Below the pieces are notes generated by a model. That model saw only the letters and a list, made by a program, of their open reading frames with translations, was not told the origin of the DNA and searched no databases. A DNA stretch of 62,243 bases, filler included, from Basidiobolus ranarum (Eukaryota), in NCBI GenBank assembly GCA_040143965.1. It is 27 parts of 27 records of this genome, joined end to end, with 100 filler letters (N's around TTAATTAATTAA, not from the genome) between each part and the next. Parts side by side here need not be neighbours in the genome. Positions count along the whole stretch, not along the records: positions 60,045 to 62,243 come from JASJQH010010519.1; 26 more parts are not named here. One strand, 5' to 3'. The translations under genes were made by a program, and so were the position numbers. Shown one piece after another: positions 20,759-62,243 of this stretch; position 1 is the stretch's first letter, and each line of letters begins with the position of its first letter.

Positions 20759-20858
20759 NNNNNNNNNNNNNNNNNNNNNNNNNNNNNNNNNNNNNNNNNN
20801 NNTTAATTAATTAANNNNNNNNNNNNNNNNNNNNNNNNNNNNNNNNNNNNNNNNNNNN

Positions 20859-21097
20859 GAACCTGGGACCTCCTTCACTCTAGCAAGGTGCTCTAACCAC
20901 TGAGCTACCAGTCCTTGTATGCTATGCCTATATTGCTAGGGAACCTTAACCTAGTCTGTCAATGTATGGCACTATGGCATTTCAGCGGTACAAGCAACTG
21001 ATTGGCCTTAAACTTTGTGTTCAGATGCATTCACCATACTACATATATTCCTCTTTGGGAATTACTGCCTGTACCACAAGTCACCAGACTTTCAACA
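20859..21097 (-). mobile_element. tRNA-cassette LTR-like repeat, copy 2
   Basis: Minus strand: TGTTGAAAGTCTGG (183-bp arm) then GGACTGGTAGCTCAGTGGTTAGAGCACCTTGCTAGAGTGAAGGAGGTCCCAGGTTC up to the contig edge. Confidence 0.8.
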
Positions 21098-21275
21098 GTT
21101 AGCAAGCAGAATGATCAGCTATTGGAGCAAGGATATGTTAGACTGAGCAAGTCACCATGGGGAGCACCAGTCTTGTTTGTCAAAAAGAAAGATACAACTC
21201 TCAGAATACGTGTTGACTACAGAGTACTGAATACAGTCACTGTAAGGAGCAAATATCCAATCACCTGGATGGATA
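21098..21275 (+). mobile_element. Ty3/gypsy RT N-terminal remnant
   Basis: [47 protein letters not shown]. Confidence 0.8.
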
Positions 21276-21484
21276 AACCATTCATCATCCAAGGAAGTGA
21301 TGACAACTCTGACATTCACAGTCTTTTGGTTTGCTGGTTTTCCTATTACAATTATACTTTATGTGCCCAAGCAATTTTGAGCTGTTCTGTAAGCTTAATC
21401 GTACAACATATATTGGATTCATTCTCTGTGATAGTGCTGGATTGTGCTGTACATATCATATCCTGACACAATGGAACAAGTCCA

Positions 21485-23070
21485 TTCTGCTCTGCTAGAT
21501 TGTGTTAGTGACATTTATATGTATGTTGTGCAATTGATTGAATACACATATGAGAATGGATAGATGGAGCAGCATATTGCTGTAGCTCAAGTACAGCATT
21601 CTGAAGGTCTTGTATCATTGTTGAGTGACTCTCAAACTGTTGCCTTGGAGCTTCAGAATGCTTTAATAAGTGCAATGTTGCAGTGTAATTGCTTGTTGTG
21701 GCCTGTATAGCAGCTTTGAAGCTTTTACTTGTAATGCATACAAATCATTATGGTGTTCCACTTGCAATTCCCTTGTTGCAATAATTCTATCCAAATTTTC
21801 TATGAAGGGTTGTTCAATAGTTGGCAAAGTAACTATTTTGGAAGTTAATGGTCTTTACAGTGTCTCTGTTGAACTTTGCTCAACTATTGCATTACTATGT
21901 AATTGGGAGATAACAATCTCTTCACTTGCCCTATGGCTGGAATGGAAGACATATAGAAAATTGATCAATGATTCTTCATTGCTTGAGTTAGTTTCCAGCA
22001 TGTTGATACCTTCCAAAGTAGATGGTGATCACTATGGTAATGAATGGCAATTTTAGTTTATTTTAAGCTGCTTCTAAGAAATTTCATTATGCCAAGTTAA
22101 ACATCTGTAAATTTCAATGCTATTCAAAAAGCATTCAAAATCTAAATTATGATTGGCTTTCAAGCCAAAGCCAGCTGGCATGAAAGGAAAAAACCAGCAA
22201 GAACAGAGGACTTAATTGATGAGCAGTCTAGCAATCCACTATCCACTTTGGAAGGCATTAACATGCCAGAAACTAACTCAAGTAATGATAAAGCATTGAT
22301 CAGTTTAACAGATGTGTTCCTTTCCAGCAATAGTGCAAGTGAAGAGATTGTAATCCCCCAATTACATAGTAAAGCAATAGCTGAACAAAGTTCAACAGAA
22401 ACACTGTCAAGACCATCAACTTCCAAAATGACTACTTTGCCAACTATTTAACAACCCTTCAAAGAGAATTTGGATAGAAACATTACAACAGGGAATTGCA
22501 GGCAGAACATGATAATGATTTGAATGCAATCATAAGTAAAAACTACAAAGTTGCTACTCAGGCCATGAAAAGCAATAATTCTGTAATATTGCAATTAATG
22601 CGGCATTCTGAAGCTACTGGTCAACAGTTAGATATTCACTCAACAATGATACAAGATCTTCAGAATGCAGTTCTTGAGCTATAGCAACATGCTGCTCCCT
22701 CCATCTATTCTCATATGGGATTTCAATCAATTGCATACCATACATATCAATATCACCATAACACTCTATCAAAGCAGAATATGTGTTGGACCATTAAGCC
22801 TACACATCAACCCACAATTGCTTTGGCACTTGAAATTCAAAATCTCCTAGCAAAGCTGGCTAACCAAAAGACTCTGAGTTCAACAGCTACTGTCACTTGC
22901 TTGAATGATGAGTGGCTCATCAAGTTGCAAACTGCACAGGCTCTTGCCCAAAATCACCTTGCTTTGAGCCAATTGTGGAAAAACCAAAAACCAGGTATTA
23001 CTCTGAAGTTTCTTGACTTATTTCATGTGGCTTATCATGGGTTTTTGCAAGCAAATGTCAAATGAGCTAG
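21485..23070. mobile_element. Two oppositely oriented copies of the CMC second ORF (minus 21485-22023; plus about 22040-23070)
   Basis: KKPARTEDLIDEQSSNPLSTLEGINM... also occurs at 38531 (+) and about 45500-45860 (-). Confidence 0.7.
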
Positions 23071-23170: not shown

Positions 23171-23295
23171 TATATCTGAGAACTTCTAAGTTGGTAAAAA
23201 TATTGCAAGTAAATTCTGATGGAGAACAGAGTGATATCTTAGTTCAATATGGAATAACTAAAACTAAGCTATATATGACTATGTTAATTTCAACA
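23171..23295 (-). mobile_element. Copia LTR family A, partial
   Basis: Ends ...TAATTTCAACA on the + strand. Confidence 0.65.
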
Positions 23296-23951
23296 ATCAC
23301 AACATGACTGTAACACTTATAGAGCAAGATTATAGATCAATAAATTTGACCAGTCTTCAAAATTTAGACTTGCCACTGTTGAATAGATTTGCTCAATGTT
23401 AATGGACCAACAGATACTTGACATACAGATATGGAGAAAGTATCCAAAATTTATGTCCTATCATACAACCCTCTCGAGTATAAGCAGTTTTATTCCATTT
23501 CTCTCCATTATAGTGTGCCAAGGTCTGATAAACCTTGACCAGATGGAACAAGTCATTGTACTTGTGATGAGTTGAAAGCGATCAGATCGGATAGAGAATA
23601 TATATGCATGTATTAAAAAAGTCCCAATATTAATGTAGCAGGTGAAGTAAATAACGATGATGCTAATATTGTTAAACTAGTACTTCCAGATATCGAGCAT
23701 CCAAAATATATAAAGCAAAAAATATGAGAATTAGGAAACAGAATTGCGGTCTTTTAATAATCTTATAAGACATATAGGATATCAAACATTATTTAACAGA
23801 GTATGGATAAAGAATGTAGATGCAATTTGATTTTATTAAAATCCAATGGAAATGTGATTAAGACTTCAAGATACAAAAACAATAGAGTAATTATTGAAGT
23901 CCAAATTAATTAGTGGTTCAAAAGGTAAATATTAAAAGATAAATTTACGAA

Positions 23952-25379
23952 TTAACTTGATCCTAGATCTTGTTGCATAACCAATTCATAATATTGTCCA
24001 CGGAGTGACATTAACTCTTCATGTGTACCACGTTCATTGACAACTCCACCCTTGAATACATAGATGACATCTGCTTTCTGAATAGTGGAAAGACGATGAG
24101 CGACTGCGATGGTGGTTCTACCCTTTGAAGCGTTATCCAGGGCAGTTTGAACGACTTTCTCTGATTCAGCATCCAAAGCGGAAGTAGCCTCATCCAATAG
24201 TAAAATCTTAGGGTTTCTAATCAATGCACGTGCGATAGCAATACGTTGCTTTTGACCACCGGAAAGTTGAGAACCTTTACTACCTAATGGAGTATCATAT
24301 CCTTTTGGAAGTGCAACGATGAAATCATGAATATTGGCATCACGTGCGGCTTGTTCTACCTCACTTTGAGAAGGTACTCGTTCAACGAGTCCGAAGCAGA
24401 TATTCTCCTTGATAGTCATGTCGTAAAGAGTGGGCTCTTGACCGACTAAAGCGACATGCTTACGTAAATCGTTGATGTTAATTTGACGAACATCTTTACC
24501 ATCGATCATGACGTTACCAGAAAGTGCATCGTAGAAACGTTCGGTAAGTCCAATGACTGTACTTTTACCACAACCAGAAGGACCTACAAGGGCGGCATAT
24601 TGACCGGGAAGAATATCGAGATCAAGACCACGAAGGACAGCAACACCAGGACGAGTAGGATAACGGAAATGAACATTCTTATATGTGACGCGACCTTCAA
24701 CTGAACTGATGTTTTCTCCTTCATTAGCAGAGACATCAATCAAAGGCTTACGATCTAACAGATTGATAATATTACTGGCGGCAGAAGTAGCTTTGCTAAT
24801 ATCGGGAACAAATGAGAAGATATTTCCTGCACTTTGGGCTCCAAATACAATTGCCATGAAGATGACAAAGAATTTTTGCATATCATATTCTCCACTGGCC
24901 ATTAACTTTCCACCATACCAGAAGCCAAGAGCATTAACCAAGAATACAATAGCTTGGGATAAAGCAAAGATAAAGGATGAACCAAAAGCGTTTCTTACAC
25001 CAGCTTGGACCGGTCCTTCTAATTCGAGATGATACATTCTACTAACATCATCTTCACGAGTAAGAGAGGCAACGGTACGTACAGCAGAGGCAGCTTCACA
25101 AGCAAGTTGGGCTGAATGTTCATAAGCAATCTTTTGCTGAGCTTGATAACCATTCATCATCTTCATACGAATCACACCAGCACCCATTAACACTGGTACA
25201 CATGCGATTACGACCAATGTGAGCTTCCAACCGTAGCAAAAACCAACCACAAATCCACCAAGAACAGTGACAAGTACTTGAAGTATCGTACCGAGAGTTA
25301 CACCACTGACTCCCTGAACATGAGTAGCATCGGTTGAAAGGGCTGAAACCAGTGCACCAGTATTATTACTATCCCGATC
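23952..25379 (-). CDS. ABCB/MDR (P-glycoprotein-like) ABC transporter, TMD2+NBD2 (5' part cut by contig edge)
   Basis: Open from the contig edge (DRDSNNTGALVSALSTDA...). Walker A GPSGCGKST, signature LSGGQKQRIAIARA, Walker B LLLDEATSALD and AHRLSTI. Confidence 0.95.
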   Translation of the reverse strand, partial: DRDSNNTGALVSALSTDATHVQGVSGVTLGTILQVLVTVLGGFVVGFCYGWKLTLVVIACVPVLMGAGVIRMKMMNGYQAQQKIAYEHSAQLACEAASAVRTVASLTREDDVSRMYHLELEGPVQAGVRNAFGSSFIFALSQAIVFLVNALGFWYGGKLMASGEYDMQKFFVIFMAIVFGAQSAGNIFSFVPDISKATSAASNIINLLDRKPLIDVSANEGENISSVEGRVTYKNVHFRYPTRPGVAVLRGLDLDILPGQYAALVGPSGCGKSTVIGLTERFYDALSGNVMIDGKDVRQININDLRKHVALVGQEPTLYDMTIKENICFGLVERVPSQSEVEQAARDANIHDFIVALPKGYDTPLGSKGSQLSGGQKQRIAIARALIRNPKILLLDEATSALDAESEKVVQTALDNASKGRTTIAVAHRLSTIQKADVIYVFKGGVVNERGTHEELMSLRGQYYELVMQQDLGSS

Positions 25380-27069
25380 AANNNNNNNNNNNNNNNNNNN
25401 NNNNNNNNNNNNNNNNNNNNNNNNNTTAATTAATTAANNNNNNNNNNNNNNNNNNNNNNNNNNNNNNNNNNNNNNNNNNNNGATCGACTTTGTCGGGAAA
25501 GTCAGGCTATTGATATTCGGTGTTGTTAGCACTCAGGGATTACAAAAATGCTATAAAAATTTCCGATTGTGCGGCCGGAGTTAGAGTATAATTATGGTTG
25601 TGTGAGGCTTGACGAAGATACTGAGACAAAGGCAAGTCACTACTCAGCCTTGAACACATTGGCGATTCCATGTAGATGTTCTCACCACTTTAATAATATT
25701 TATATGCTAAACAATAAAGAAATTGTTGATATATGTAGATAAGAGTGTATTTATAAATCGAAACTCTAATAAAGCATGAAAGCTAAGAGGTATCTTTGAG
25801 GTCGAGGTAAGCCAACGTTGTAGAAAAACAAGTTTTGTTAGATGGGTTAAAATTTCTAATTATGTCTTGTGCTTAAAAATATAATAAAACCCAAAGAAAT
25901 AATTGTTGATCGAAACGGTAGATGTAGCGATTAAGCAGGCTTATATAGATTTTATAGTATAAGAGATTCTTTTCTATTGTTATCTATTAAGAAAAAAGGA
26001 TGAATTATATGCAGATGGATAGCGAAAAAAATTGATTGGAATAACGATGATAAAAATACCAAGGAGCCTTAGAAAATTGGAATGTAAAATATTTTTGAGC
26101 AGAGTTGCACCTGTGCAATCATTGTAGCCTGACTAATTAGGTTACAAAGTTACAAATTTTCTTCGCAACTAGCCAATTTTCCCCATGATCATCGCCTCTA
26201 TTCAATATGGAAAGATCTTTTTAGGCGAGCTATCTTCTGATTTCTGCATGCCGAATTTGATGACCAAAACACCGAATAGTTAGTTCATCATTTGGTCATA
26301 GCTCACATGAGTCAACTCATGTTGAGACACATCTGATTGGCACGTCTGCTCTTGACACGATTAGCGTATTCTCCTTCACAGTTGCCACAAGTGCAAGCAC
26401 ATGGATATGTAGCGGTATGTTAGAGTACCAGGTGTCTAAGATTCCAATTGCAAGAAGACACTTTGCAACCAAAGTGGATGCTTTAGTAGGTTTTTTGGGG
26501 CGGAAGCTGGTAACCCCATAGATAGCAACCATAGGGTAAGAATATCCAATCAATTTGCCATTTATCTCAAACATAATAAAGTGGTGTTACCTGAGCTCAA
26601 TGTCGAGATTGAGATTCTTGGTCCAAGTATGTTACAGGATGTGGCGGTACTAGAGGGCAGATACTTGTTGCAAACGTGATTAGCGAAACACTAGCATCCA
26701 GCTCGTTAAGGGAACTGAAACTCAGCTTACGCTTCGTTTTAGTCTATCTACATTGTAAATCGAAACCACATCATTGTCTCAGTATGCGCAGTAAAATTTG
26801 TTAGTCACGATGGGTCCATACATGGTAATATCGTTCTGAAGCTTTCCTTATTCGATTTTAATCCCTGGAATGTTTAATATTCACCCTTTTAGCAAATGAT
26901 GGCTATACAAGGAAGCGCATTGGTCAACGAATCAAACAGCCTTAGCACGTTCTTGCATATTCGATACCGGACAGGGGCCATTGCGCCTTAGGCTAAATGA
27001 AATCATTGTAGTTATATGAAGGAGCAAACTATCCTCTCTACAGGATATTCAAAGGCCTTTCCTACCACT

Positions 27070-27792: not shown

Positions 27793-27892
27793 ATGTATCA
27801 TCGGTGAAGCGTAATAAAATCGAAGATTTACCAACGCTTGAGTTACCAATTAAGAGTAATTTTAAAGTAGCAGCAACTTCTCCGTCAGCCAT
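27793..27892 (-). CDS. RAB18: Rab18-like small GTPase, N-terminus (cut by contig edge)
   Basis: MADGEVAATLKLLLIGNSSVGKSSILLRFTDDT. The P-loop plus TLK...GKSS+LLRFTDDT is typical of Rab18. Only 33 codons are visible; absent from the ORF track. Confidence 0.75.
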
Positions 27893-28912
27893 TATATGAT
27901 TATTTCAATGCAATTAGGTTAAGGATGTTCTATAAAATGTGGATGTCACAGAAGCTGGAGAGTAGAGAGAGGTTGTAGGTAGGACTGTTACGTGAACTAA
28001 GCTTTTGAATAATTAAAGTTGAAGGTGGGGGGTTCATAATAATTAAGGATATTAAATTAAAATAAGGGTTAAAGGGGCTAAACCAAAAGAAATAGTGATG
28101 ATTAAAGTCGGTATTTTTATAGAAATACATGATTTATTTTATAAATATTAACAAACAGAGGTAAATCTTACTAGTAACTGAGTGATTGATAAGCAAATGC
28201 CGAAGTTGTGTCATGAAGATATAGTATAAATTTTAATTGGCCACCGTTGGGCTTAAGAGGTAAGTTCGACTATATTTGAAAAAGTTGACTGTAGTCAGTT
28301 ATAGATGGACGATCTAAGCAAGAGATTGTAACCCGAAAAGTTGTAATCGGTGATTTCCTTTCATTGCCTAAATTGTTCTTACTCAAACCCTTTTTAGATA
28401 CCCAAAATGTCCAACATTTCGCACGTTATCTGATGATCAATGTAACGAGGAGCGACAACTCATTACAACACCACAACAGCGCCACTACCGTACCGCTACC
28501 CTTGACCGGAACTCCTAGGAAGTGGCGGTCCCAAATATTCATGATGCGCATACTAAACTCCAGAGCTGGTTTCCTGACTTGATAAAAGATTGGGGGGTTT
28601 TAAAGTGATTTAGAAATCGGGCTCCGAAAAGAGGGGCAGAATAATATAAAAGGAGGTCAGGCTTTTTTTTGCCTAACTTGGCAGCAGCACAAGGCACATA
28701 CGTTGAGGCATCATTATGATCTCATGCTTTTGGTTGGTTCACCAGAATAATTTGGAGTATTTAGAGTGGTGCTAAATTCTGAAACAAGTCAACTATCTCT
28801 CTAAAGTCCTTTTTAACCCAATTTAACTTAACAAACCTTCTTGGTACTCTAATTGAAGATTCGCTTTCATTCCCTCCTTTAACGGCAACCTAAAAAGCCT
28901 TTGAAAACCTAG

Positions 28913-30001
28913 ATGTCCAGTTACGGCTCCGGAAAGTATTCGTACCTTAGTGACCGACGACTACAAGAAAATTTGCAAGTCAATGGTTCTGGCGTTGACA
29001 TCCCACGTAGCAGTCGAGATTCACAGATCTCTGTAGAAGACTTTAATTACGGCAGCTTAGGCGCCTCCATCACTCACGATATATACAAAAACATTGAGCC
29101 TCCTCAGCGACTCACTCGATCGAACAGCTTCTCGGAATCCGTAAATTCTTCTCATCTCATTTCAGATAATGGTAAGAGTGCTGTTGGAATGATGAGAGAG
29201 CCAGGAGGCTTTCGTAGAGATTACATTGTAAATAAAGCCCAGTTACAGGGAAAAGCACCTCCAGCTGCGGCAACCAGGAGTTTCATGGACTACATGTATC
29301 TTTTCGATCACTTTGCTGGTGAAGATTTGGAAAGTGAAGATGAATATGACGAGGAGGAGGAAGAAGAAGAAAGTCCTGGGGCAGTTGAATCTAGCGGTAG
29401 TAGACGACCCTTACTTGGTCGAAGTGGACGTAGAATTTCTAGAGCGGCTTCCCAGATACAAGGAACTGCTTCTTTATCCAAGGCCTTCTTCTTACTGTTT
29501 AAAGCTTTTGTCGGAACTGGAGTCTTATTTTTGCCAAAAGCATTCGCTAATGGCGGAATTGTTTTTTCAAGCGTAGTTTCACTCTTCGTAGCCTTTCTAT
29601 CTGGTCTTTCTATGTTACTACTGGTAAAAGTTCGGGAAACGATCCCTGGGGGTTTTGGTGAAATTGGTGGACAGCTATTCGGAAAAAGAATGAAATACAT
29701 TATTCTTTTTTCAATTGCCCTCTCTCAGGTTATTATGATTCGTTATTATACATATGAATGCGAGCAGTATCTAACTTCTAATATTTGTCTAAATCATTAG
29801 ATTGGATTCTCATGTGCCTACATGATTTTTATTGCCAAGAATTTAAGTGATTTAATATTAGCTATATCCAAATGTCAAGTAGTCGTTTCGGATAGATTCC
29901 TGATCATGATCCAGTTGCTTCTCTATATTCCATTCTCATGGCTCCGCAAGATGAACAGCTTATCCAACGCAGCTTTGGTCGCTAACACGGCCATCTTTTT
30001 T
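28913..30001 (+). CDS. Avt3/Avt4-like vacuolar amino acid transporter (Aa_trans), 3' end cut by contig edge
   Basis: ITHDIYK, PGGFRR, DHFAGEDL plus acidic run, and LLFKAFVGTGVLFLPKAF.NGG. Intron 29729-29800 (GT...CTAAC...TAG) joins SIALSQ to IGFSCAYMIFIAKNL. Confidence 0.92.
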
Positions 30002-32409: not shown

Positions 32410-34616
32410 TTGATTTTTTCATCAAACAAAATATCCCAGGACTTGATTAACTTTGAAATTTTGGTATCATAGAGTCTGTAGGCCTTAGTTTGAGTACAAT
32501 AAGCCAGAAATATGCATTTCTTACTTCTTGGGTCAATCTTAGATCAATTTTTGATCATAATTTTGACATATGCAATGCATCTAAAGATCCTCCAATTTTT
32601 TACATCAGGTTTCACGCCAAACCAAGCTTGATATCATGAAGAGTTAGAAAGACTTCTAGTAAGACTCTTATTCTCCAAATAACCAGCTATAGCAACAGAT
32701 TTCACTCTATAGTTATATGATAGATTTTGTGCATTGATCATAGATCTTGCCATTTCTATTATAGTCCTGTTAGCTCTTTTGGCAACTCCATTTTGTTGAG
32801 GTGAAGGGGGGGGCAGTAGTTTGTTGCTGAATTCCATAATCTTTGCAAAAGAGCTTAAATAGTGATGAAGTATATTCTCCACCATTCTCAATATGTATCA
32901 TCTTGATTTTAGTTCCAGTTTAAGTTTCCACAAGTGTTTTAAAATCTCTGAAGATAGAGAGAACTTCTTTTCTTTCCATGAAGTAGACTCAAGTGTATCT
33001 TGTATGATAGTCAATAAATATGATGAAATATCTGTTTCCACCTAAAAAAAAATTTGCATAGGTCCAAGCAAATCTGAATGAATTGGATCCAATTTTTTGA
33101 CAGATTTGATCAAACCAGAGCCTTTGAGTGGTTGCCTGACTTGTTTTCCATATATACAACCCTCACAAACTTTCATTTTGGTTGGGAGGGGAGGTGATTT
33201 GAATTCCAGATATTAGGCAATTTTTGATCATTTTGCTCAAATGATTAAATCCAACATGGTCAAATCACTTATGCCATAATTGAATAGTTTCTTGACTGAA
33301 ATAATGCATATTTACACATAAACCTCTTGAATTATATGTAAGCTTGTATAAGTTCTGATACTTTTCTCCCAAAACTAAATAATTCCCATTTTGATCAGTC
33401 ATGATGCATCCTGATTGATCAAAATTGAATTTTAGCCCTTCTGAGGTGGCCTAGCATATGAATATTGAATTCTTGGCAATAACTGGAACATGTGGTTCAT
33501 CCTTAAAAGTATACACCTTCTCTTCAGGAGCTCTATTAAATTGACCTGAATTGTTCCCATTCTAATGGCATCCAATGTATGGTCATCTTCTATGAAAACC
33601 TTTCTAATTGGGATTTCTTCATAATCCTCAAACCAATGTTTTTCATTTGTGAAATGTTGGGAGGCTTCAGAATCTGTATGCCACATCTGAGAATCCTTGT
33701 TGGTAGTCATGGATAGAGTAGATATAGACAAGTGTTCTTCTGTTATAACCACAATTCCAGATTTAGTACATTTTTCATTGTTTGCAATTCTTTTAAAGCA
33801 ATCTTTACTTGAATGGCCAGTTCTTTAATAGTAATCACAGAATGTGTTACTTTTCTTCTTAAAGTACTTTTGACCTTTATAGGAAGGTTTCCCTTTGCCT
33901 ACTATAGCATTTTCTTCATTCTTTTGGTTGGAGCCTAATTTGCAGAAATCCTGATCCAGAAGTCTGCCAAATACATAGTTTATGGTCAAATTTTCAGTTC
34001 TTGATACTGGGGCCATTACTAGGCTCTGCAACTCATGTGACAGGCTACTCAGGATGGTAACTATGTTATCTTCATCAGCAGTACATACTCCAATGCATTC
34101 CATTTCATCCACAAAAATAGTGACTCTATTAGTTAGTGATTTAATGTCTTCTCCTGGCTTCATCTTTAAGTTCAAGAGTTGTCTTCTTGGAAACATCTTG
34201 TTGGCAGCAGAACTTGTTTGGTAGGTGTCTTCCAAGGCTTTCATATCTTCTTGGCAGTTTTAGCTCTTGTACATTGAATTAGCAATTTGTCTTTAACATT
34301 AAGAGGAAGTGTGTTAAAGATACTTTGTGCTCTTTTAACCTGGAGTAAAACTTTGGATTCAGATAGTTTTGCATTGTTTTCTTCTCCTACAACAGTGTCC
34401 CAAAGTCCTTTTTCTTGCAGCAGCATTTACATTTTAATTTACCAAACTTGAAAATTGGTTCCATCCAATTTTTCAGAAGAGGGAAAAGTTCCATAAATTT
34501 GAGAAATAGACATTACAGAGAGTGCAAGTGCAGGGATCATAACCTGTTAAGGTATTTGGGAGCCTGTTAGAGGTGGTTTGGAGAATTAGAGAAATTGATG
34601 GTTTTCACTTATTGAT
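32410..34616 (-). mobile_element. Ty1/copia family A: LTR (34545-34616), PBS (34533-34544), gag, protease, GAG-pre-integrase and integrase; degenerate
   Basis: KLDGTNFQVW, CCHC-like knuckle, WHTDSEASQH, HSDL.GP and PQQNGVAKRANRTIIEMARSM, in copia domain order. Confidence 0.9.
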
Positions 34617-35069: not shown

Positions 35070-35810
35070 CTGTAAGAAAAATAAAATCAATTTGATCCAG
35101 ATTGAATATACCTTTCTGGATTGCAAAACCCTGAGATAACCATCAAAATATTCATGGCTTGCATTCTGCCATGAATTTTTATAGTGAAATGGGGGCTAAT
35201 CAATTGTATTTTGACAGTATTCAGACATGGAAAAATATGATTCCTCACATTTGGTATTTGTTATATCATTGCCAACAATTTTGGTAAAAAACTCATTTTC
35301 AAGTGGCAAATGACTGGACTTACTGCTGCAGGAATTTGAATTAGTGTGCATGCCTTTATTTTTATATTTTAGTCTTTGTATACAAGCAATAATGAGAATC
35401 AAAAAATACATGAATCTTGTTGTGTTCAGTCACTACATATGTGCATATTAAACTGATCAGAAATAGCTCAACAACATCAATATGCCTTACCAGCAAACTA
35501 ATGGTGGAAAAATTGCTAAACGTCTGAAATTTTGAATAGCAGTGATACTTGGCAAATAGCTGATTCTTGTTACCATTCACAATAAGAGTAAGCTCTTGGA
35601 TTTTGGCAAATTTCCATAAAGAACTTGGCCAAAAAATCAGCAACTTGCAGTGAATGAATGAATGTATGGGCAAAAGTAGATGAGTCATTGCTTGAATAGA
35701 TTAACCCATGGCTTAAAAAATAATATTGTATATTTCAATCTATCTCACCAAGAAGTCTGTGTTGCAGCTTTTGTAGAAATACTGACAGATTATCACACAA
35801 ACACATTAGG
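35070..35810 (-). mobile_element. CMC transposon right-end region
   Basis: Reverse-complement homolog of about 40400-41136. Confidence 0.65.
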
Positions 35811-37022: not shown

Positions 37023-39227
37023 GTCTCATACAGGATATCAATCAATCTCACACCATATATATCAATGTCACTCTGACAATCAAGCCAAGCAGAATATGTG
37101 TTTGACCATTGAGCCGTCACAACAACCCAAAATTGCTTGACAAATGAATGTAGTAATCTCATAGGCAAACCAGATATCAAAAACTCTGAATTTCAAAGCT
37201 TCTGTCACTGGCTCTGATGATGAGTGGTTCAACATTTGGAAAGTGTGTGGAATGTTGCCCAATATCACCTTGATTAGAGCCAATTGTAGAAAAACCAGAG
37301 ACCAGGCATTATTCTGAAGATTCTTGACTTATTTCATGTAGCTTATCCTGGGTTTTGATAAGCATATGGCAATTGAGCTTTTACAGGCCTATTAATGAAA
37401 TATCTCAAAAGTGTATGCAATTATTCACTCAGAAATCAAGAAAAGCAGCTAAAAAAGTACTCCAGGACCAGCAGAGTAGTAAACCCAAGGAAAAGCAAAG
37501 GGGCCAGTGAATTTAGAGTCTATTGCATCTCTTGCCATATTCTTCACACCACTACAAAGATGTGTTTTGTGAGAGTCAGATATGTCAGCAGATATACTGG
37601 CAAAAAGGCATAATTTTACCATGCAATCAAGTACACCAGCTGGAAGAGTGCTGTATTTGGAGGATTATCCAATAACTGCACCTCTCCACAAGTAAAAACA
37701 TCAAGAAATAGAACTTACTGCTCTCCAACATCAACTGGTATTTTTCAGAGTGTGGAAACTAAACCCAAAGTTTAATGCAAGCAAAAAGCCACCAAAACAC
37801 TGCAAGCACACTCAGTAGTACCATATTACAAGGATGTAGAAAAATAGTAAAAGTGCTCAAGGAGTATTTTTAAAAATATGAGTGGAAAAATGAGATGAGA
37901 GTATGCAGCTAGTGGCTTCAGAAAAACACTCAACTGGATAATCAGTCTGGAGCTGACCATGCAGATATCTAGGAAGAACTTAATAGAGAGTAGCACAATA
38001 TTGCCAGGTGTCTGCCAGATAGCTGCAAAATGTTGATTCAGCAACAATTATACAATGGTGGGTTTTCATGGAGGTATTGATACAAAATCATGTTGGATAT
38101 GAGCCAAACCTTGGGTATGGAGAACTCTATAAAAATGTCCAGGAGAATATATTCAAGAAACTAGGGATTTTGAAGGAGACATAGTAGTGTTCCAGTGGTA
38201 AATGTATAAAATTTTAGTTATGTTGTTTGCGCATCTGTTGATCCATAGTTCTCTGAGATTGTAGCCAATCATGCTTAACTTTTTTGCAAGATCTTGAAAT
38301 TTCACTCCTGAAACTGCAAAAATTGATTGAAATCAAATCTAACTTGATGATTTTATGATGGTAAGTAAATGGTCAATCCCAAATGGATTAAAATTGTGAC
38401 AGTTTTCCTATGGTAACAATCCTCAAATTTCTGTTAGGTGCAACAATCAGGTAATGGATGGCAATTTTGGCTTATTATAAGCTGTTTCTAAGCAATTTCA
38501 GTACACCAAGTTTACCATCTGAAAACTTCAATGCCATTGAAAATGCATTTAAAATCTAAGTCTATATCAGCTTCCAAGCTAAAGCTTGCTGGCACAGGAG
38601 GAAAAAAACCAGCAAGAACAGAGGACTTCATTGATGAGCAGTCTAGCAATCCACTATCCACTTTGGAAGGCATTAACATGCTGGAAACTAATTCAAGTAA
38701 TAATGAAGCATTGATCAATTTACCAGATATGCTCCTTTCCAGCAATAGTGGAGGTGAAGATATTGTAATCCCCCAATTATGTAGTAAACCAATAGTTGAT
38801 CAAAGCTCAACAGAAACACTGTCAGGACCATCAACTTCCAAAATGGCTGCTTTGCCAACTCTTTAACATCCCTCCAAAAAAACTTGGATAGAACTATCAA
38901 AACAAGGAAATTTCACACAGAAATTGATAATGATTGGTATGCAATCATAAGTAAAAACTAAAATGTTGCTATACAGGACATGACAAGCAATAATGCCACA
39001 ATATTGCATTTAATGCAGTGCTCTGAAGCAATAGGTTAACAGTTAGACAGTCACTTGAAAATAATACAAGACCATCAGAATGCAGTATATGAGCAACAGC
39101 AACATGGTGCTCTCTCTGTCCATACTCATATGGGAATTCAATCAGTCCCACACCAAACATATTAACATCTCCATGACAATCTAGCAGAGCAGAATATGTG
39201 TTGGACCCATAAGCCTACTCATTGACC
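37023..39227. mobile_element. CMC left arm (-, 37023-38438) abutting another ORF2 copy (about 38450-39227)
   Basis: Terminal repeat ...AAATTTCTGTTAGG at 38438; ORF2 peptide MPLKMHLKSKS...KKPARTEDFIDEQ at 38531. Confidence 0.75.
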
Positions 39228-39498: not shown

Positions 39499-41136
39499 AT
39501 TATTTTACCATCAACAGCCTGGTCAATATTTAACATGCTTACTGAAATAAATTCACCAAACAGTCAGTCCAGCAGCATACTTGATATTATCCATAAGCCT
39601 AAGATTATATTGCTTGAGAGGATCAGCTGGAGCCAGGGCTTCCCATTAGACAATATGCAATTACTCTTCAACAACATTCCATTATTACTTACACAATTGT
39701 ATAGTGGAAAACTCATTCTGAATGAGCCATACAAGATAAGATCAAAGTTTGAATTGTTTTGGAAAATGCTCAAAAACATCAATGACCATCATATTTTACC
39801 AGAACTCCCATCCATATCCACTCATCTAGGAATTTAGTCAAGTGCAAAGCCTGGAAGTATTGTATTATCTATATATTTGAGTGAAATCTTGAAAGGATCT
39901 CTGCCTCAAAAGGATTGGCAACATTGGGAGTTGTTTGTGGATATTGTTAACATTTTTAAGGCATCAACTCACATTGGCAGATCTCAGGCAGATACAGCAA
40001 CTGTGAAAAGATGTTCTCATTCAATATGATAGCATTATTACAGATTTAACAAAGATGGACTGAATCAATGCTGGTATTCAATACATTTCCTGCTGCATCT
40101 TTCACAATGCTTAGAGATTATAGGCCCTTGCTATACAGTCTGGGAGTTCCCCATGGAGTATATCTGCAATGAAATCATGCTCTGTGTGAAGTTATCATTA
40201 TAATCATATGCTACTCTGATTAATAATGTATCAGCACAATTGGTGATAGATGAAATGTAATGGGTTAGCACAACTCCAGACTATATGGACCTTCCAACAA
40301 AGGGTTCTTCTCACTGTGATCATGGATCTTTGCATTTTTTGATCATAATAGGAGCTACAAAGCGCAATCCATAGACCCAGAGTAAGCACCTCCATAATTT
40401 TGACTTTTATGTTTGTGTGATAATCTGATGGTGTTTCTAGCAAAGCTACAAGACAAACCTCTGGGTGAGATAGATTGAAATATGTGCTATTATTATTTTA
40501 GCTGTGAGGCAAGCTATTCAAGCAATAACACAGCTACTTGTGGCAGGATATTGCTTGACTGCAAGTTGAGGATAATTTGGCTGAAGTCTTTGTGCAAATT
40601 TGCCAAAATCCAAGATCTTCTTCTTATTATGAACAATGACCAAATTTGGCTATTTAACCAGTGTCAGTGCTATTAAAGTATCAGTTGTTTGGCAACTTTT
40701 CACCATAAATTTGCTTGTAAAGCATATTGATGTTGTTGAGTTATTCTTGATTAGTCAATCAGATGAATAGGTAAGGACTGAGCATCATAACATTCTTGAA
40801 TTGTTTGATTCTCATGATGGCTGGGATATGAAGCCTGAAATATCTCAATAAAGGTAAGCACATTAATTCAAATTTCTATAGCAGTAAACCTAGTAATTTA
40901 CCATTTGAAAACTAGTTTTTAAAAAAAATTGTTGAAACTAAAATAATGTATGCCAAATACAAGGATAAATACTCTACCATGTATGAATACTGTCATAATA
41001 CAATCATGAAGCTGCCATCTCACTACCAAAATCCCTGGCATTATGGAAGCCACCAACACTGTGATGGTTCTTTGAGGGTTTACAATCCAGAAGGGTGGAT
41101 TCAAACTGGGTCAAGTTGATGTTATTTTTGTTAGGG
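39499..41136 (+). mobile_element. CMC transposase C-terminal half and right end
   Basis: FPLDNMQLLFNNI and IHFLLHLSQCLEIIGPCYTVWEFPME; ends TTATTTTTGTTAGGG. Confidence 0.8.
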
Positions 41137-43409: not shown

Positions 43410-44128
43410 TTTCAAGTTTTAATCCTTTAACCTCGCGGGGATATGGAAGTAGGGAAAAGAGAGAGCTGCTTTTGTTTGTTCATGTACTTTATTCTCCAAT
43501 CGATCCTCGAAAAGTCTTGATTTATTTCCCTTCACTGGGTGAATGCGATGGCTCGGGTCCTCTGTCCGATGATAGGGAGGTCAAATTCCAAATTCAACAG
43601 TGATAATACAAATTAGGACTTCAATCAACCTGTGATATTGCTAAGGAAATACAATATTCAAACTTTCATGTTACTTTGTCAACCTGTTTAAGATCATGAC
43701 TATGATACACTTAGACTTAGGGAGAGAGGCTGAAACACAACGGACATTCTACGACTCGCAGATCTGATTGAGTGCAAGCCAGTCGCCCTTATGGCCCATC
43801 GAAAACCCACAATTGCTGGCCTGGTGAGGGGAAGGNNNNNNNNNNNNNNNNNNNNNNNNNNNNNNNNNNNNNNNNNNNNTTAATTAATTAANNNNNNNNN
43901 NNNNNNNNNNNNNNNNNNNNNNNNNNNNNNNNNNNTAAGCATTGTGGAAGATGCAGCAGGGATTATATTGAATACTGGCATAGATTCAGTCTATCTCATC
44001 TAAGCCTAAAATAAAGTTTTTCATGTCCAATCACAAAATCTTGGCACAGTTGCTGTATCTGCCTGAGATCTGCCAATGTGAGTTGAAATCACAAGAGTAT
44101 ATTAACAATATCTGCAAAAAACTTCCAA

Positions 44129-46138
44129 CCCCAAGAGAAATATGAGGATTGTTATTTTTTGAAAAACCATCCCAATTTTAATCCATTTTGGATTGACCAT
44201 TTATTTAATGTCATGAAATTGTCAAATTTGATTTGATTTTAATCAATTTTTTCAGTTTCAGGAGTGAAATTTCAAGATCTTGCAAGATAGTTGCACATGA
44301 TTGGCTACAAACTCAGAGAACTTTGGATAACCCATGTGCAAAAAATGTAACTCAAATTTTGCACCTTTACCACTTAAATGCTAATTGGCCACATTTGAAA
44401 TCCCTAGTTTCTTGGATATATTCTCCTGAATATTTTTACAAAGTTCTCTATACCAAAGGTTTAACTCATATCCAACACAAGTTCCTATCAATATATCTAT
44501 CAAAGACCACCATTGTATTAACATTGCTGAATCAAAATTCTTCCAGGTATTGGGCAGATACCCTGTGATATTATGCCACTCTGTATTAAGTACTTCCCAG
44601 ATATCTGCATAGTCAACACCAGACTGAACATCAAGTTGAATTTTCTTCTTCTGAAGCCACTTTCTGCATACTTGCACTGCATTCTTCCCTTCATACTTTT
44701 GAAAATACTACTCAAGCACTTGTACTATTTTTTTACATCCTGGTAGTGTGACACTACTGAGGGTGCCTAGTGGTGTTTGAGCAGCTTTTTGCTTGCCTTT
44801 AAGTTTGGGGCTAAATTCAACACTTTGAAAAGTACCAGTTGAGGTTGGAGAGCCATGAGCTTTATTTGCTGGAGTTTTGGGTTGTAGAGGAGCACCAGAT
44901 GTTGGATAAACTTCTGAATTCAGCACTCATGCAACTGGTGTACCTGGTTCCATGGTGAAATTAAGCTATTTTGCCAGTATATCTGACTCTAAAAATACAG
45001 ATCTTTGTAATGGCATGAGGAATTTAGTAAGTGGGATAGTAGAGCCTAAGCTCACTGCCTCCTTTGCTTTTCCCTTGGGTTTACTAACTTCCTGCTCCTT
45101 GAGTACTTCTTTAGCTGCTTTTCTTTCTTTTCCAAGTCAATAATTGTGTACATTTTTGAGATCTTTCATGAATAGGCCCATACTAGCACAATTGTCATTT
45201 CCTTGCACAAACCCAGGATAAGCCACATGAAATCAGTCAAGAAACCTTCAGTGTAACACCTGGTTTTTGGTTTTTCCACAATTGGCTCAAATCCAGGTAA
45301 TTGTGGAAAAGATTCCGCACAGATTCCAAAATGTTAAACCACTCATCATCAGAGCAAGTGACAGCAGCTCTGACATTCAGAGTCTTTTGGTTTGCTGGTT
45401 CTCCTATGAGATTTCTAGTTTTTACCTATGATTGCATAAACATCATTGCAGTGTTCCGCCTGCTATTCCCTTGTTATCTAATTCTACCCAAATTTTCTAC
45501 AAAGGGTTGTTGAATAATGGGCAAAGTAGCCATTTTGGAAGTTGATGGTCTTGATGGTGTTTTGATTGAACTTTGCTCAACTATTGATTTACTATGTAAT
45601 TGAGGGACTACAATCTCTTCACTTGCACTATTGCTGGAAAGGAACACCTCAGGTAAATTGATTAATGCTTCATCATTACTTCAGTTTGTTTCCAACAAGT
45701 TAATGCGTTCCAATGTGGACAGTGGATTGCTAGACTGCTCAACAATTAAGTCCTCTATTCCTCTGGGTTTTTTTCTTTTTCTATCAGCAGGCTTTGGTTT
45801 GGAAGCCGATTTTGATTTATATTTTGAATGCTTTTTGAGTGGCATTGAAATTTTCAGATGGTAAACTTGGTGTAATGAACTTGCTTAGAAACAGCCTCTA
45901 ATAAACAAAATTGCCATCCATTTCCAGAAGTATCTTGTAAATCCCATGATGACTCATCTGTGACACCATCTCAGAATCAGCTGATGATGTTGATGGGCTA
46001 TACCTAAAATACCACCATTACATAGGAGGTGTTCTTTTGTCTACAATATCCTTCTCATGCCACGACTCAAACATTTAAAGAAGCCCTGCTATTAATGTCA
46101 CAAATTCTGGTGCTAAGAAAGCTGGAGGCTTCATAGAA
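44129..46138 (+). mobile_element. CMC left arm: terminus, ORF2 (minus strand) and the region leading to the transposase
   Basis: Starts CCCCAAGAGAAATATGAGG; 45935-46138 matches 58692-58895, which leads into the transposase. Confidence 0.75.
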
Positions 46139-52467: not shown

Positions 52468-53043
52468 TGTTGAAATTATATAAATAGCAACTCATTATTA
52501 AGTAGTTAGTTTATTCATATTCTGATTATTTAGTACTCAATTCTGTCATTCAAAAGTGTGTTTTTATTGCTCTAATTGATAGAAATATCAATTAGATCAC
52601 TTTTACCAATTTTCACTATTTTCTCAAAACTTCTCCTAATCACCTCAAATCTTTACAAATGCTTAACAGGCATGTTTGTTATGATCTAAGCACATCCAAT
52701 AGTCCTACTTCATAGTAAACTATAAATAGGCCATATTCAATTCAATAAAACTTAAGTGTCTAATTCACAAATCCAAATCTTGTCCTAAACACTTCCAAAT
52801 CCCCTAAACACTTTTATCAGGTTATGAGCCCCAAGCTAGCTGTTAAAGGAATCTCTACCAGTACTCTTACCAATGTTTTTGCATCCGCAGAGAAGTTTGA
52901 TGGTGAGGACTTTCACCTTTGGAGATTCAAGATACAGATGGTGCTACAAGACAAGGTCCTTTGGGGATTTATTACAGGAGAAGAAATAGAGCCAAAGGGA
53001 CCACCAGAAGCTATCCTTGCCTTTCACAAGAAGCAGAGGAAAG
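52468..53043 (+). mobile_element. Copia family B 5' LTR (52468-52819), PBS (52820-52831) and gag start
   Basis: TGTTGAAATT...TTTTATCA, then GGTTATGAGCCC, then MSPK...EKFDGEDFHLWRFKIQMVLQDKVLWG. Confidence 0.88.
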
Positions 53044-57744: not shown

Positions 57745-59944
57745 CTCCAATGATGAGTGGTTCAAAGTCTTAGAACCTGTGTGAAATTTAGCCCAAAACC
57801 CTCTTGATTTGAGCCAATTGTGGAAAAACCAAAAACCAGGTGCTACTCTGAAGGTTCTGGACTTATTTCTTGTGGCTTATCCAGGGCTTTTGAAAGCATG
57901 TGAAAATTGGGCTAGTGTAGGCCTACTCTTCAAACGTCTCAAAAATGTATGCAATTGCCAACTTGGAACAGAAAGAAAAGCAGCTAAAGAAGTACTCAAG
58001 GAGCACAAAGTTATGAAACCCAAGGGAAAAGCAAAGTAGCTAGTGAGTCTAGGCTCTACTGTCCCACTTACCAAATTCTTCACACCATTACAAAGACTTG
58101 TATTTCCAGAGTTAGATAATGGAAAAAAGCTTAATTTCACCATGGAACCAGGGACACCAGTTGAAACAGTGTTAAATTCAGAAGCTTATTCAACACCTGG
58201 CACCTCTCTACAGGCCAAAACACCAGCAAATAAAACAATATTGCAGGGTATATGCCAGATAGCTGGAAGATTGTTGATTCAGCATCCTTGATACAATAGT
58301 AGGCTTTGATGGAGATATTGATACAAACTTGCGTTGGATATGAGCTAAACCTTGGGTATCAACAACCCCATAAAATATTCAGGAGAATATTTCAAAGAAA
58401 CTAAGGATTTCAAAAGTGACAAATCAGCATTCAAGTGGCAAAAGTGTAAAATTTGAGTTACGTTTTTTGCACTTCTGTTGATCTCTAGTTCTCTGAGACT
58501 GTGGCCAATCATGTGCAACTATTTTGCAAGCTCTTGAAATTTTACTCCTAAAATTGCAAATTTGATTAAAATCAAATCTTACTTGATGATTTTATGATGG
58601 TAAGTAAACGGTCAATCCAAAATGGATTAAATTGTGCTAGTTTTCCTACCATAACAATCTGCAAATTCCTGGCAACTTTACTGGAAATATCAAGTAAATC
58701 CCCTGCTGACTCATCTGTGATACCATCTCAGAATCAGCTGATGATATTGATGGGATATACCCCAAATAGCACCCTTTTGTAACAGGTGTTCTGTTTCTAC
58801 CACATCCTTCTCAGGCTAGAAAACAAATGTTTAAAGCAGCCTTGCAACTACTGTCACAAAATATTCTGCTATGAAAGCTAGTGGCTTCATAGAAAAGATA
58901 ATCACAAGCATGGTCACTGTGCAAAGCTACCAGCTGCACAAAGCCTGGTGAGCTTCAATAATAATACATTAACAAAATCCATTTTAGTTTTGCCCACTGT
59001 ATCAATTGGCTCTGCTTTACCTCAAAGTTTTGGTAACACTGCTGAAAGTCAAGACATTATGGAGTTAACACAGTATATGGCCAGAGTGATATAGGTAGAT
59101 ATGCAACTTTGATCAAGCCAGTGAGTCCAGCCAACTTTGAGTTCATGCTGCCAGATGTTGACTTTGGTTATTAGAGTACTTATGGTAGTATATCAGAAGT
59201 TGGAGAAGAAGACTACAGTTAGATTACAGACTCTTTGTTCTTGGCAAGCATTGGTTCACTCATAACACTTTCAGTTCAGGAAGCAGCTTTAATTATTGAG
59301 GAGTGGAGAGTTTAATCCAATCTTAGCAACCAGGTGTCTGTTGGTTTTCTTACATTTTTACCACAGCTGATTGGCCATTGCTGCTTGCCACAGACCCAGT
59401 ACATGTGGAAAACACTTGTCAATTATATGACTTATAAACCTCCAGGAATCAAACTACCTTCATATCCAAATGGTTGTTTGGCTTTCACTGGTGATCTAAA
59501 AAATCTGGAGTCATACACCATTTGCACACAATTGGCAAACATTGAGTCAGGTAAATGTTGCTCATATCTGACTTACAAACCATTGATTCCCCATCTTAAA
59601 ATTTGGATGAAATACCCAAATATATATGGTTGATCCATTATCAAAGTGCTTACCATAAAGCTGATGGTATTACAAATATGCTGTATATTTGTTAAAACAA
59701 TGGAGTTTACTCTGCCAGATATATACATTACTACTATCCAAACACAATACTAAACTCAATGTTTTTTGCATCAGATTTCAGCATGCTCCCGGATATCAAC
59801 TTACAATATAGTCAGTCTAACATCAAACTTGGGATTAGCCGTAAGCCTAAGATTATATTGCTAAAGAGGATCAGCTGGAGCCAGAGCTTCCCATTAGGCA
59901 CCATGCACTTACTATTCAACAACATTCCAATACTACTTACTCAG
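57745..59944. mobile_element. CMC left arm (-, 57745 to about 58670) and transposase 5' region (+, about 58690-59944)
   Basis: Homologous to 44129-45360 and to 13917-15140. Confidence 0.78.
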
Positions 59945-60044: not shown

Positions 60045-60663
60045 ACACTACAAGGATGTACAAAAATAGTCAAAGTGCTTGAGGAGTATTTTCAAAAGTA
60101 TGAAGGGAAAAACACAGTGCAAGTATGCAGAAAGTGGCTTCAGAAGAAGAACATTTAACTTGACATTCAGTCTGGCATTGACTGTGCAGATATCTGGGAA
60201 GAACTTAATACAGAGTGGCACATTATTGCAGGGTATCTGCCAGTTAGCTGGAAGAATGTTGATTCAGCAACATTAATACAATGGTGGGCTTTGCTGGAGA
60301 TATTGATGCAAACTTGTGTTTGATATGAGTTAAACTTTGGGTATGAAGAAATCCATAAAATCTTCAGGAGAATATTTCAAAGAAACTAGGGATTTCAAAG
60401 GTGACAAATTAGCATTCAAGTGGTAAATATATAAAATTTGAGTTATGTTTTTTGCACATGTGTTGATCCAAAGTTCCATAAAATTTTAGCTAAGCAGGTG
60501 CAATTATTTTCAAGTTCTCAAAGTTTCACTCTTGACACTGAAAAAATGAGTTAAAATCAAATATAACTTGACAATTTTACAATGGTAAGTAAATGGTCAA
60601 TCCAAAATGTATCAAATTTGTGATGGTTTTCTTGTAATAGCAATCCTCAAATTTCTGTCAGGG
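60045..60663 (-). mobile_element. CMC transposon left end
   Basis: Ends CAATCCTCAAATTTCTGTCAGGG. Confidence 0.8.
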
Positions 60664-60794
60664 CTAGTGCTATACAATCTTATGCTATGAAAACTTAAGA
60701 CTTCATAGAAAGAACATTCACAAGCATGTACTCTGTTTGGAGCCACCAGTTACACAAAGCTTGTCAAGTATCAGTATCTCAAGACTGAAGATAT

Positions 60795-61279
60795 TGTCAT
60801 GATTCTGATCTTGGCATACTTATCCACTGAAAATGAAATTCTTTTAATTTTAGTTTATGATGCCATATTGGCTGTGCCATCCTTTGTTGGCAATCTTATG
60901 CTAGTGCCTCTGGGTTACCTTATATAGAAGTCACATTCTCTAAAATATTCAATGAAGCCTGGCCAATAGTATCATCCCAAGATAGTATATTTCTGCCAAG
61001 ACCTTCCATGGAAAATCACCTACTCATCTGTACATGATCCTCTTTGTATTGGTTCTTGTACTACTCAACATCCCAACACTTGAACTTGCTATATATTGAT
61101 TTTCACCCTGCAATATCTATGTAAGCTCACAGTTTTCCTTGATCAGACCTCAGTATGATCAATCCCAGTTATTGATCAGGATTCTTGTCATATATCTACA
61201 TGGTCTAGTCTTGTCTTGTCTTGTCTTGTCTTGCTGATGGTCCACACTCAAGCACCCTCCTGCTTTCTAACCTCTTGTC
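60795..61279 (+). mobile_element. LTR family E, near complete, containing (GTCTT)5
   Basis: Starts TGTCATGATTCTGATCTTGGCATAC; the microsatellite lies at about 61208-61233. Confidence 0.65.
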
Positions 61280-61317
61280 CTCTAGCAAAAATAAATCAAT
61301 CTGATTTGGATTGGATC

Positions 61318-61427
61318 TATTGAAATTATTTAAGGAGAAATATTGGTCTGGCCAGGATTTGAACCTGGGACCTTCTTCACTCTAGCAAGGTGCTCTAACC
61401 ACTGAGCTACCGATCCTTCTATGCTAT
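61318..61427 (-). mobile_element. tRNA-cassette LTR-like repeat, copy 3 (supplies the other terminus)
   Basis: The + strand starts TATTGAAATT (like TGTTGAAATT), contains the whole tRNA-like cassette, and shares the flank CCTT.TATGCTAT with copies 1 and 2. Confidence 0.75.
61344..61416 (-). tRNA. tRNA-like sequence (73 nt), probably not a functional tRNA; part of a repeat
   Basis: GGATCGG TA GCTC AGTGGTTA GAGC A CCTTG CTAGAGT GAAGA AGGTC CCAGG TTCAAAT CCTGG CCAGACC A. Canonical spacing and perfect D and T stems, but mismatched acceptor and anticodon stems, and an AGA anticodon without the long Ser variable arm. Confidence 0.6.
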
Positions 61428-62243
61428 TGTTACAAAATTGGATTATCAGAGAAAAGCGATGGCAATTTTGGAGACAACATAATGTCTCAATCAACACAAT
61501 TTTTGTACACATAAAGCGCATAAGCAAACCTTGCCTGTCACCCAGTCTCATATCTACACCATTCCTACACGTCTCACAATCACCAAAACAAGCAAAGAAA
61601 TGCAAATATCTCCAGAACTACCAGACAAATCATTACTAAACTCTACAGATATTATTCCCTGTTATTATTCTACTTGAGGTATAAATTTCAAAACAAACCG
61701 ACCGCGGAGACAAAAGTTACAAGACATTGGAAATGGACCATCAGTGTTATATACATGTTTTGAAATTAGCACACTCCCAAATCCGGCAGGAATGCCACCT
61801 GATTTCCCCCAATCAACCCTATAAAAATAGCACCATCAAAATAAAATTAATCAGTCAATTTATCAGTGAATCAAGTCCCAAAATTGCACTCACCTCAGGA
61901 ACCAGCCTCAATATATGGTAGCAGCAATTTATTAAGAAAGATCCTCCATAGAAGAAAGCACAAAGAATATAAAGAAGTACAAGCAAAAGACAAGAAAGAA
62001 TGTCAGGGAACCAAGGAAACACAGAAATGCCAGATACATGGATGACTACAGTAACTGATATACTTGTGGAACTAAATGAACAAGCGGCAGGACAAGGGGC
62101 CAGGATCCCAGTGAAGATAGCCATGTAACATAGCAGACCAAATGAGAATGTAGTAGCATGGTTAATACAGACAGAACAGGCCTTTAATACAAAATCAATC
62201 AGTGAAGACAAGAAGGTGGCAGCAATAGGAAGCTATCTCCAAG
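61428..62243 (+). mobile_element. Ty3/gypsy 5' LTR (starts TGTTAC) and gag remnant
   Basis: NENVVAWLIQTEQAFNTKSISEDKKVAAIGSYLQ resembles the retrotransposon gag pattern +..WL..+E..F......KV; the LTR right boundary is uncertain. Confidence 0.6.

Follow-up and report, generated by a model that had tools for sequence, protein, structure and literature searches.

A tRNA-like cassette in a dispersed repeat of Basidiobolus ranarum, tentatively read as part of a Helenus-like LTR

Three copies of a repeat with a tRNA-like core

The window, i.e., the whole stretch of DNA of 62,243 bases that was analyzed, consists of 27 separate contigs (2222–2199 bp) of Basidiobolus ranarum, arranged by descending length and joined by spacers of the form N44-TTAATTAATTAA-N44 (e.g., 20759–20858). 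Because the window is a concatenation of contigs, any adjacency across the spacers is an artefact. An earlier note had placed three related stretches on the minus strand at 19001–19200, 20859–21097, and 61318–61427, and a direct reading of the sequence confirmed them there. These stretches, referred to here as copies A, B, and C, were the three copies available for comparison, within 60 kb, and they belong to three different contigs (18546–20758, 20859–23070, and 60045–62243, respectively). Copy B lies at the very start of its contig. Copies A and B are on the same strand, and their apparent spacing of 1.66 kb is an effect of the concatenation, because the two are on different contigs. The features are listed in Table 1.

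Table 1. Positions in the window of the parts of the three copies, of the sequences that adjoin them, and of the resident copia LTR.
Feature	Position	Strand	Basis or remark
Copy C, cassette, 73 nt, the sole complete one	61344–61416	-	ARAGORN; Rfam tRNA
Leader of 11 nt common to A, B, and C (ATAGCATAGAA vs. ATAGCATACAA)	61417–61427	-	Alignment; the similarity to A/B stops here
Copy C, trailer of 26 nt 3' of the cassette, end TTTCAATA, in copy C only	61318–61343	-	Direct reading; proposed 3' terminus
H-like stretch, 38–40 nt	61280–61317	-	Local alignments vs. four H copies; nhmmer
Copy B, first 56 nt of the cassette, broken off inside the T arm at the contig end	20859–20914	-	Reading; Rfam 21.3 bits
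Copy B, arm, 183 nt, start TGTTGAAAG	20915–21097	-	Alignment, blastn
Copy A, cassette truncated after its first 17 nt (GGACTGATAGCTCAGTG)	19001–19017	-	Alignment; E junction
Copy A, arm, 183 nt, start TGCTGAAAG	19018–19200	-	90.5% to B over 200 bp
Repeat E copy, common terminus ...TTTCTGTTAGGG, which adjoins and truncates the copy A cassette	18546–19000	+	blastn; 11 E junctions
Short copy (137 bp) of the same E end, directly outside the 5' edge of the arm of copy A	19201–19337	+	blastn
Ty3/gypsy RT fragment, N-terminally truncated, flanking the copy B arm	21098–21466	+	tblastn/blastp
Ty1/copia LTR G (TGTTGAAATTAGC...ACTTTAACA, about 348 bp), then directly GGTTATGAGCCCC	1820–2180	+	Candidate autonomous partner

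ARAGORN called the cassette of copy C as tRNA-Ser(aga), and the Rfam tRNA model matched it with 48.3 bits (E = 2.8e-07), the gathering score being 29. Box A (TAGCTCAGTGG) and box B (GGTTCAAATCC) are both present and intact. According to cmscan, there are two non-standard pairs in the acceptor stem and two in the anticodon stem, and none in the D stem or the T stem, and the AGA anticodon is combined with a short class-I variable loop, not with a Ser-type arm. The earlier note had claimed precisely this, namely intact boxes and D and T stems, mismatched acceptor and anticodon stems, and an AGA anticodon lacking the Ser variable arm, and these points were borne out. The partial cassette of copy B gave a sub-threshold match to the Rfam tRNA model and retains box A together with the beginning of box B. 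In the stems, copy B reads GGACTGG where copy C reads GGATCGG, the 27–43 pair is kept in B and gone in C, and the 5' strand of B would pair better with the 3' strand of C than the 5' strand of C itself does. The ancestor of the cassette was probably closer to a proper cloverleaf. The cassette is thus a decayed tRNA derivative in which box A and box B are intact, and the comparison of its promoter parts with its decoding parts is one between one full and one partial copy. The first run of five Ts 3' of the cassette is at 61287–61291, inside the H-like stretch.

Several of the stem defects are compatible with CpG decay. The observed/expected ratio of CpG was 0.02–0.12 in the contigs with transposons, versus 0.47–0.82 in the gene-bearing contigs (e.g., 18546–20758 vs. 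27793–30001), which suggests a methylation-driven C-to-T decay of the repeats. Since the ratio is this low in the transposon contigs, the loss of stem pairs needs no argument from selection.

Other contigs of the window carry coding sequence. A subtilase fragment (12121–12660) has 87% identity to a protein of Basidiobolus ranarum, followed by proteins of other Basidiobolus and of Mortierellaceae, and its contig has the LTR family G in common with the transposon contigs. There is also a cytidylate kinase ORF of bacterial type (PF02224; 2691–3305, minus strand) and an ABC transporter ORF (23952–25379, minus strand). Pieces of LTR G are present on the contig of the kinase (2323–4544; contig positions 2039–2222) and on that of the transporter (23171–25381; contig positions 1–118). 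Because these contigs also bear pieces of the copia LTR G, the two ORFs probably belong to the fungal genome and are not contamination.

Pairwise comparison with blastn gave 90.5% identity between copies A and B over 200 bp, which correspond to the 183-nt arm and the first 17 nt of the cassette, and 94% identity between copies B and C over 67 bp (61361–61427); copies A and C have 28 bp in common. In the alignment, the resemblance of copy C to A and B begins 11 nt ahead of the cloverleaf. The cassette of copy A is broken after GCTCAGTG by the terminus of repeat E. The unit of 285 bp that the earlier note had assembled is stitched together on paper from three contigs through the overlaps of 28 and 67 bp. 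Its parts were found at the lengths proposed (arm 183, cassette 73, and trailer 26), but no copy has both ends, and the two termini do not occur together in any of the three copies in the window. A pattern search and low-stringency blastn detected no further copy of the arm or the cassette in the window, and metagenome scans with a cassette 22-mer and an arm 20-mer gave 0 matches each.

The contig of copy C contains no match to a profile of the arm at E ≤ 50. The upstream flank of copy C was also considered as a diverged arm, which was rejected (p = 0.33 and 0.07 in a transition-tolerant alignment; no match with nhmmer), and a homology of A and B beyond the E fragment was not accepted (local alignment, p = 0.08). 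A reading of the arm as pol coding sequence was rejected. The ORF at 21002–21466 enters the arm by 32 codons, 8 of the 32 residues are not the same in A and B, and the residues have no positionally consistent similarity to 82 gypsy polyproteins. A search of the arm against Rfam (E ≤ 10) yielded no credible small-RNA module, including any 5S-like part. The fold of the 148-nt unit of copy C had a z score of -1.61, which is uninformative.

Edges of the repeat and the resident Ty1/copia LTRs

The 5' edge of the arm falls on the identical base in two unrelated contexts, next to the 137-bp fragment of repeat E in copy A and next to the antisense gypsy RT in copy B. Because the two contexts differ, this edge is a true repeat boundary. 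The start of the unit given in the earlier note is that of copy B (TGTTGAAAG); copy A reads TGCTGAAAG instead. The arm therefore begins TG(T/C)TGAAA, with TGTTGAAA in B and TGCTGAAA in A. The octamer TGTTGAAA occurs 16 times over both strands of the window, i.e., 1.3e-4 per position, so its placement exactly at the arm edge by chance is unlikely.

The same octamer opens the resident Ty1/copia LTRs. Both LTR G and a second LTR at 52468–52819 (element at 52468–52831, plus strand) start with TGTTGAAA, and both are directly followed by the PBS GGTTATGAGCCC. Three copies of LTR G continue directly into GGTTATGAGCCCC or a close variant of it. In the contig 32410–34616, LTR G and the PBS are followed by a copia gag (PF14223, 4.9e-16) and Pol_BBD (Pol beta-barrel domain), the element being located at 34537–34616 together with 33435–34259 (both on the minus strand). 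We take GGTTATGAGCCC to be antisense to the anticodon stem-loop of the initiator tRNA, and the PBS of the resident copia elements would accordingly be of the initiator-tRNA anticodon-loop type. This 12-mer forms part of an oligonucleotide listed in the part of a yeast initiator-tRNA paper that was available. The earlier note had described the resident copia elements as half-tRNA-primed, and the order of LTR, GGTTATGAGCCC, and copia gag bears out that description.

Past the octamer, the arm has nothing in common with the resident LTRs by blastn, searches at low stringency included. That the arm is LTR sequence would be the simplest reading. Two of the three copies (A and B) bear the arm at the identical junction with the cassette, and the form consisting of arm plus cassette has therefore been copied at least once.

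The 3' side is seen in copy C. Its sequence TTTCAATA, located 26 nt past the cassette and ending at 61318, matches the reverse complement of the 5' octamer except for one transition. By expectation, 65 nt would contain the pattern TTTCAA[CT]A 0.014 times, and the octamer with any single mismatch 0.09 times (164 matches, both strands). The variant seen in copy C ends in TA, not CA, so that the terminal CA is destroyed; the 3' ends of the resident LTRs are TTTAACA, TTTTATCA, or CCCAACT. The trailer of copy C was not matched, at E ≤ 100, by a profile built from the final 50 nt of nine copies of LTR G, and its identification with the U5 end of that LTR was not accepted (pairwise p = 0.004–0.15). 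A 3' terminus at 61318, present in one copy, is at most weakly suggested. Of the earlier claim that both termini of the unit match the ends of the copia LTRs, the 5' half stands through the octamer TGTTGAAA, and the 3' half is weak, given the expectation and the profile result above. The 3' end TTTCAA(C/T)A of that note does read TTTCAATA at the place proposed, in this single copy.

The earlier note had reported no two-LTR copy, PBS, PPT, or TSD in the window, and we likewise found none. Past 61318 in copy C, there is no PBS, and the sequence reads GATCCAATCC... and is H-like; copy C, possibly a solo or 3' LTR, is the sole one to show this position. Matches to CAGGTTATGAGCCC at ≤ 3 mismatches numbered seven in the window, all of them elsewhere. 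No PPT is evident 5' of the arm, where the E fragment (copy A) and the antisense RT (copy B) are located, and both copies could be 5' or solo LTRs. No second LTR or TSD was found for the copies in the window.

The 38–40 nt that follow the trailer resemble the 3' end of repeat family H (...ATTGATTTTATTTTTGTTAGGG), the resemblance extending to the final base of H. When this stretch was aligned locally with four H copies, the score was equaled in 0/300, 1/300, and 0/300 shuffles for three of them, and p was 0.03 for the fourth. The H profile also reaches its last position here (nhmmer, E = 0.0073 and 0.0016), but in a search of the whole window the value for the tail (0.0073) is at the level of noise, as a probable chance match had E = 0.0028. 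An unrelated repeat, K, starts at 61278, right past the H-like stretch. The heptamer ATCCAAT occurs at 61437–61443 and 61310–61316 and so brackets a 120-bp piece of copy C; a shared 7-mer in this geometry was obtained in 3337/20000 shuffles and at 809/7837 control positions (10–17%), and is not significant. The possibility that copy C was inserted into a copy of H, with a TSD, was also considered. The upstream flank of copy C resembles H only weakly (p = 0.009, 0.052, 0.39, and 0.62 against the four H copies in a restricted test and 0.26–0.87 in a wider one), and it had no match to the 261-position H profile.

The repeats that surround the copies have features of their own. Repeat E, the commonest one, is present in 10 of the 27 contigs (e.g., 18546–19000 and 19201–19337, both on the plus strand, 60210–60664, and 15582–16131). 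One of its ends (...TTTCTGTTAGGG) is fixed, and the flanks at 11 junctions are unrelated. Repeat H was found at 4678–4937 and 40877–41136 on the plus strand and at 35070–35329 and 1739–1806 on the minus strand, with the end ...ATTGATTTTATTTTTGTTAGGG. Short copies of E and H that keep the end are 137, 114, and about 68 bp long, those of E itself being the copies of 137 and 114 bp. The two repeats have the end TTT(C/T)TGTTAGGG in common, and a single telomere-like TTAGGG unit is present in each of their ends. The start of E (CCCTAACAGAAAT) forms a near-perfect inverted repeat with the end of H, an arrangement that would be compatible with a DNA transposon. Searches of E and H for RT, endonuclease, or transposase domains found none, and their ORFs have no Pfam match. 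For the E ORF (about 125 aa), a profile search of 1.84 billion proteins gave six matches, of which three are hypothetical proteins of Basidiobolus ranarum; a bacterial Ig-repeat protein among the six was taken as spurious, and the few relatives of this ORF are thus mostly from B. ranarum. Another repeat, F, lies directly past the E terminus in two contigs and ahead of E in another (37023–39227, 57745–59944, and 43936–46138), and in one B. ranarum protein (P0139), an F-type ORF is joined to an E-type ORF. F and E thus seem to be components of a single larger unit, with a head-to-tail arrangement in some cases.

Readings of the family

We tentatively favor the reading that the family is a Helenus-like LTR bearing a tRNA-derived Pol III cassette, a candidate TRIMp3 element, although we give this somewhat less than an even chance of being right. 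The three pieces would represent one dispersed repeat family with the tRNA-derived cassette as its core. This cassette would have lost its decoding ability and retained an internal Pol III promoter in the form of box A and box B, and in copies A and B it would be situated, in the sense orientation, 183 nt inside the 5' part of a Ty1/copia-type LTR. Transcription by Pol III would presumably start at the cassette. The element, which may be small, would be copied and integrated in trans by the resident copia elements, with priming from the anticodon loop of the initiator tRNA. Copy C would be the 3' part of such an LTR, having lost its arm and lying at a distance of 40 nt from where an H-family repeat ends; just as well, another insertion may have broken the LTR in copy C, as has demonstrably happened in copy A. 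The presumed length of the LTR, about 285–290 bp, is inside the range of 120–323 bp given for Helenus in the available text of a published account (PMC10886601). The points in favor of an LTR are the copia octamer at the arm edge and the identical junction of arm and cassette in copies A and B, and those in favor of a SINE are that copy C has no arm and has an H-like tail.

In the second reading, which we regard as possible but unlikely, the family is a tRNA-SINE of ~110–150 bp, composed of a leader (11 nt), a tRNA-like head, a body (26 nt), and a tail (38–40 nt) that it has in common with the 3' terminus of the retroposon-like repeat H. Copy C would then be whole, and copies A and B would descend from one SINE that sat in a copia-type LTR and was later duplicated. 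The start of the similarity 11 nt ahead of the cloverleaf in copy C, with nothing arm-like upstream, is consistent with this, but in copies A and B, 183 nt of arm precede the head. The tail argues for a SINE in that it matches the H terminus (by the shuffles, for three of the four H copies), extends to the end of the profile, and is directly followed by the unrelated repeat K, and the first run of five Ts is near the end of the H-like stretch; against this, its nhmmer score does not rise above noise when the whole window is searched, there is no tail of the A-rich or simple-repeat type, and the flanking ATCCAAT is not significant. The short copies of E and H keep their common end, as is typical of 3'-end-primed retroposition, but an RT or endonuclease was found in neither repeat, and the E ORF has no Pfam match. 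TRIMs of the Helenus type can arise through the insertion of a SINE into an LTR, a route that Kojima proposes for the birth of Helenus in the text available to us (PMC10886601).

A third reading, which we consider improbable, treats the cassette as a passenger, that is, as a tRNA pseudogene or SINE remnant within larger repeats, duplicated segments, or a misassembly, with the apparent termini being breakpoints of nested insertions. All three copies are indeed nested in other repeats, two of them being broken by repeats or contig ends, and the contigs are fragments of about 2.2 kb from a repeat-rich assembly. Nevertheless, the arm has the same edge in both of its contexts, with the copia LTR octamer at that edge, and three copies in three surroundings argue for the dispersal of a defined unit. 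The low CpG ratio (0.02–0.12) would account for the loss of stem pairs without selection, and one full and one partial copy are too few to establish that the promoter was kept and decoding lost.

It is very improbable that copy C is an ordinary working tRNA gene, because, in spite of a score above the Rfam gathering threshold and intact A and B boxes, it combines an AGA (Ser) anticodon with a short variable loop, has two non-standard pairs in each of the acceptor and anticodon stems, shares the 11-nt 5' flank with copies embedded in a repeat, and is located in a CpG-depleted transposon contig.

If the reading as a Helenus-like LTR is true, tRNA-bearing TRIMs extend from Basidiomycota to a zygomycete lineage, and their proposed origin would be on view here as a SINE captured by a copia LTR, beside a copia partner primed by the initiator tRNA. 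The more specific proposal that a Helenus-type LTR element of the Basidiobolus lineage has been caught together with the free tRNA-SINE that seeded it (copy C) is a doubtful one; if true, it would show directly how a SINE promoter enters a copia LTR, and would place Helenus in an early-diverging fungus, outside the Basidiomycota, to which its known fungal members are confined. If the family is a SINE, it would be a small SINE of the ordinary kind in a fungus that has been little studied. Under either reading, the finding adds modestly to known classes and does not introduce a new mechanism. Cassettes of this type also inflate the counts of tRNA genes in fungal annotations; the one described here was called as tRNA-Ser(AGA).

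Comparison with Helenus, SINE2, and Cassandra elements

The comparison with Helenus is one by description, based on the text of Kojima (2024, PMC10886601) that was available. [quoted passage not shown] Helenus elements of rust fungi account for many of the predicted genes for tRNA-Ser-AGA and tRNA-Thr-AGT (PMC10886601). The sequence in Basidiobolus ranarum resembles them in that a tRNA-like sequence is placed in the sense orientation inside LTR-like sequence, and its box A (TAGCT...TGG) and box B (GGTTC) fit the patterns TRGCY...YGG and GGTTC. A tRNA finder calls it with an isotype mismatch, and Ser-AGA is also among the calls in the Helenus elements of rusts. Moreover, the PBS of the host copia elements fits the initiator-tRNA anticodon loop, which is the type of partner proposed for fungal Helenus. 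It differs from Helenus in that the window has no two-LTR copy, PBS, PPT, or 5-bp TSD, copy C has no arm, and the 3' end of the LTR is weak. The host differs as well. The fungal hosts named in the available text are Pucciniales, two Agaricales, and Amylostereum (PMC10886601), in contrast to the zygomycete Basidiobolus lineage here. Keyword searches of the open-access literature, which were not exhaustive, found no report of Helenus or SINEs in Basidiobolus.

SINE2 elements, as represented by the families of Aspergillus fumigatus in the part of PMC5063351 that was available, are similar to the present sequence in their small size, tRNA-related head, and internal Pol III promoter, and copy C in particular resembles them because the repeat starts near the head and its 3' part is like the end of another interspersed family. 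The differences are the 183 nt upstream of the head in two of the three copies and the lack of a LINE partner, a demonstrable TSD, and an A-rich tail. The plant TRIM Cassandra, as described in the same available part of PMC10886601, is similar in having a small-RNA Pol III promoter within the LTR; however, that promoter is derived from 5S rRNA and the lineage is that of plants, whereas the arm described here has no 5S-like part detectable with Rfam. Both of the leading readings thus stay inside known classes (Helenus/TRIMp3 or SINE2), and the possible new points are the host lineage and the occurrence of a free and an LTR-embedded cassette together, beside a matching copia partner.
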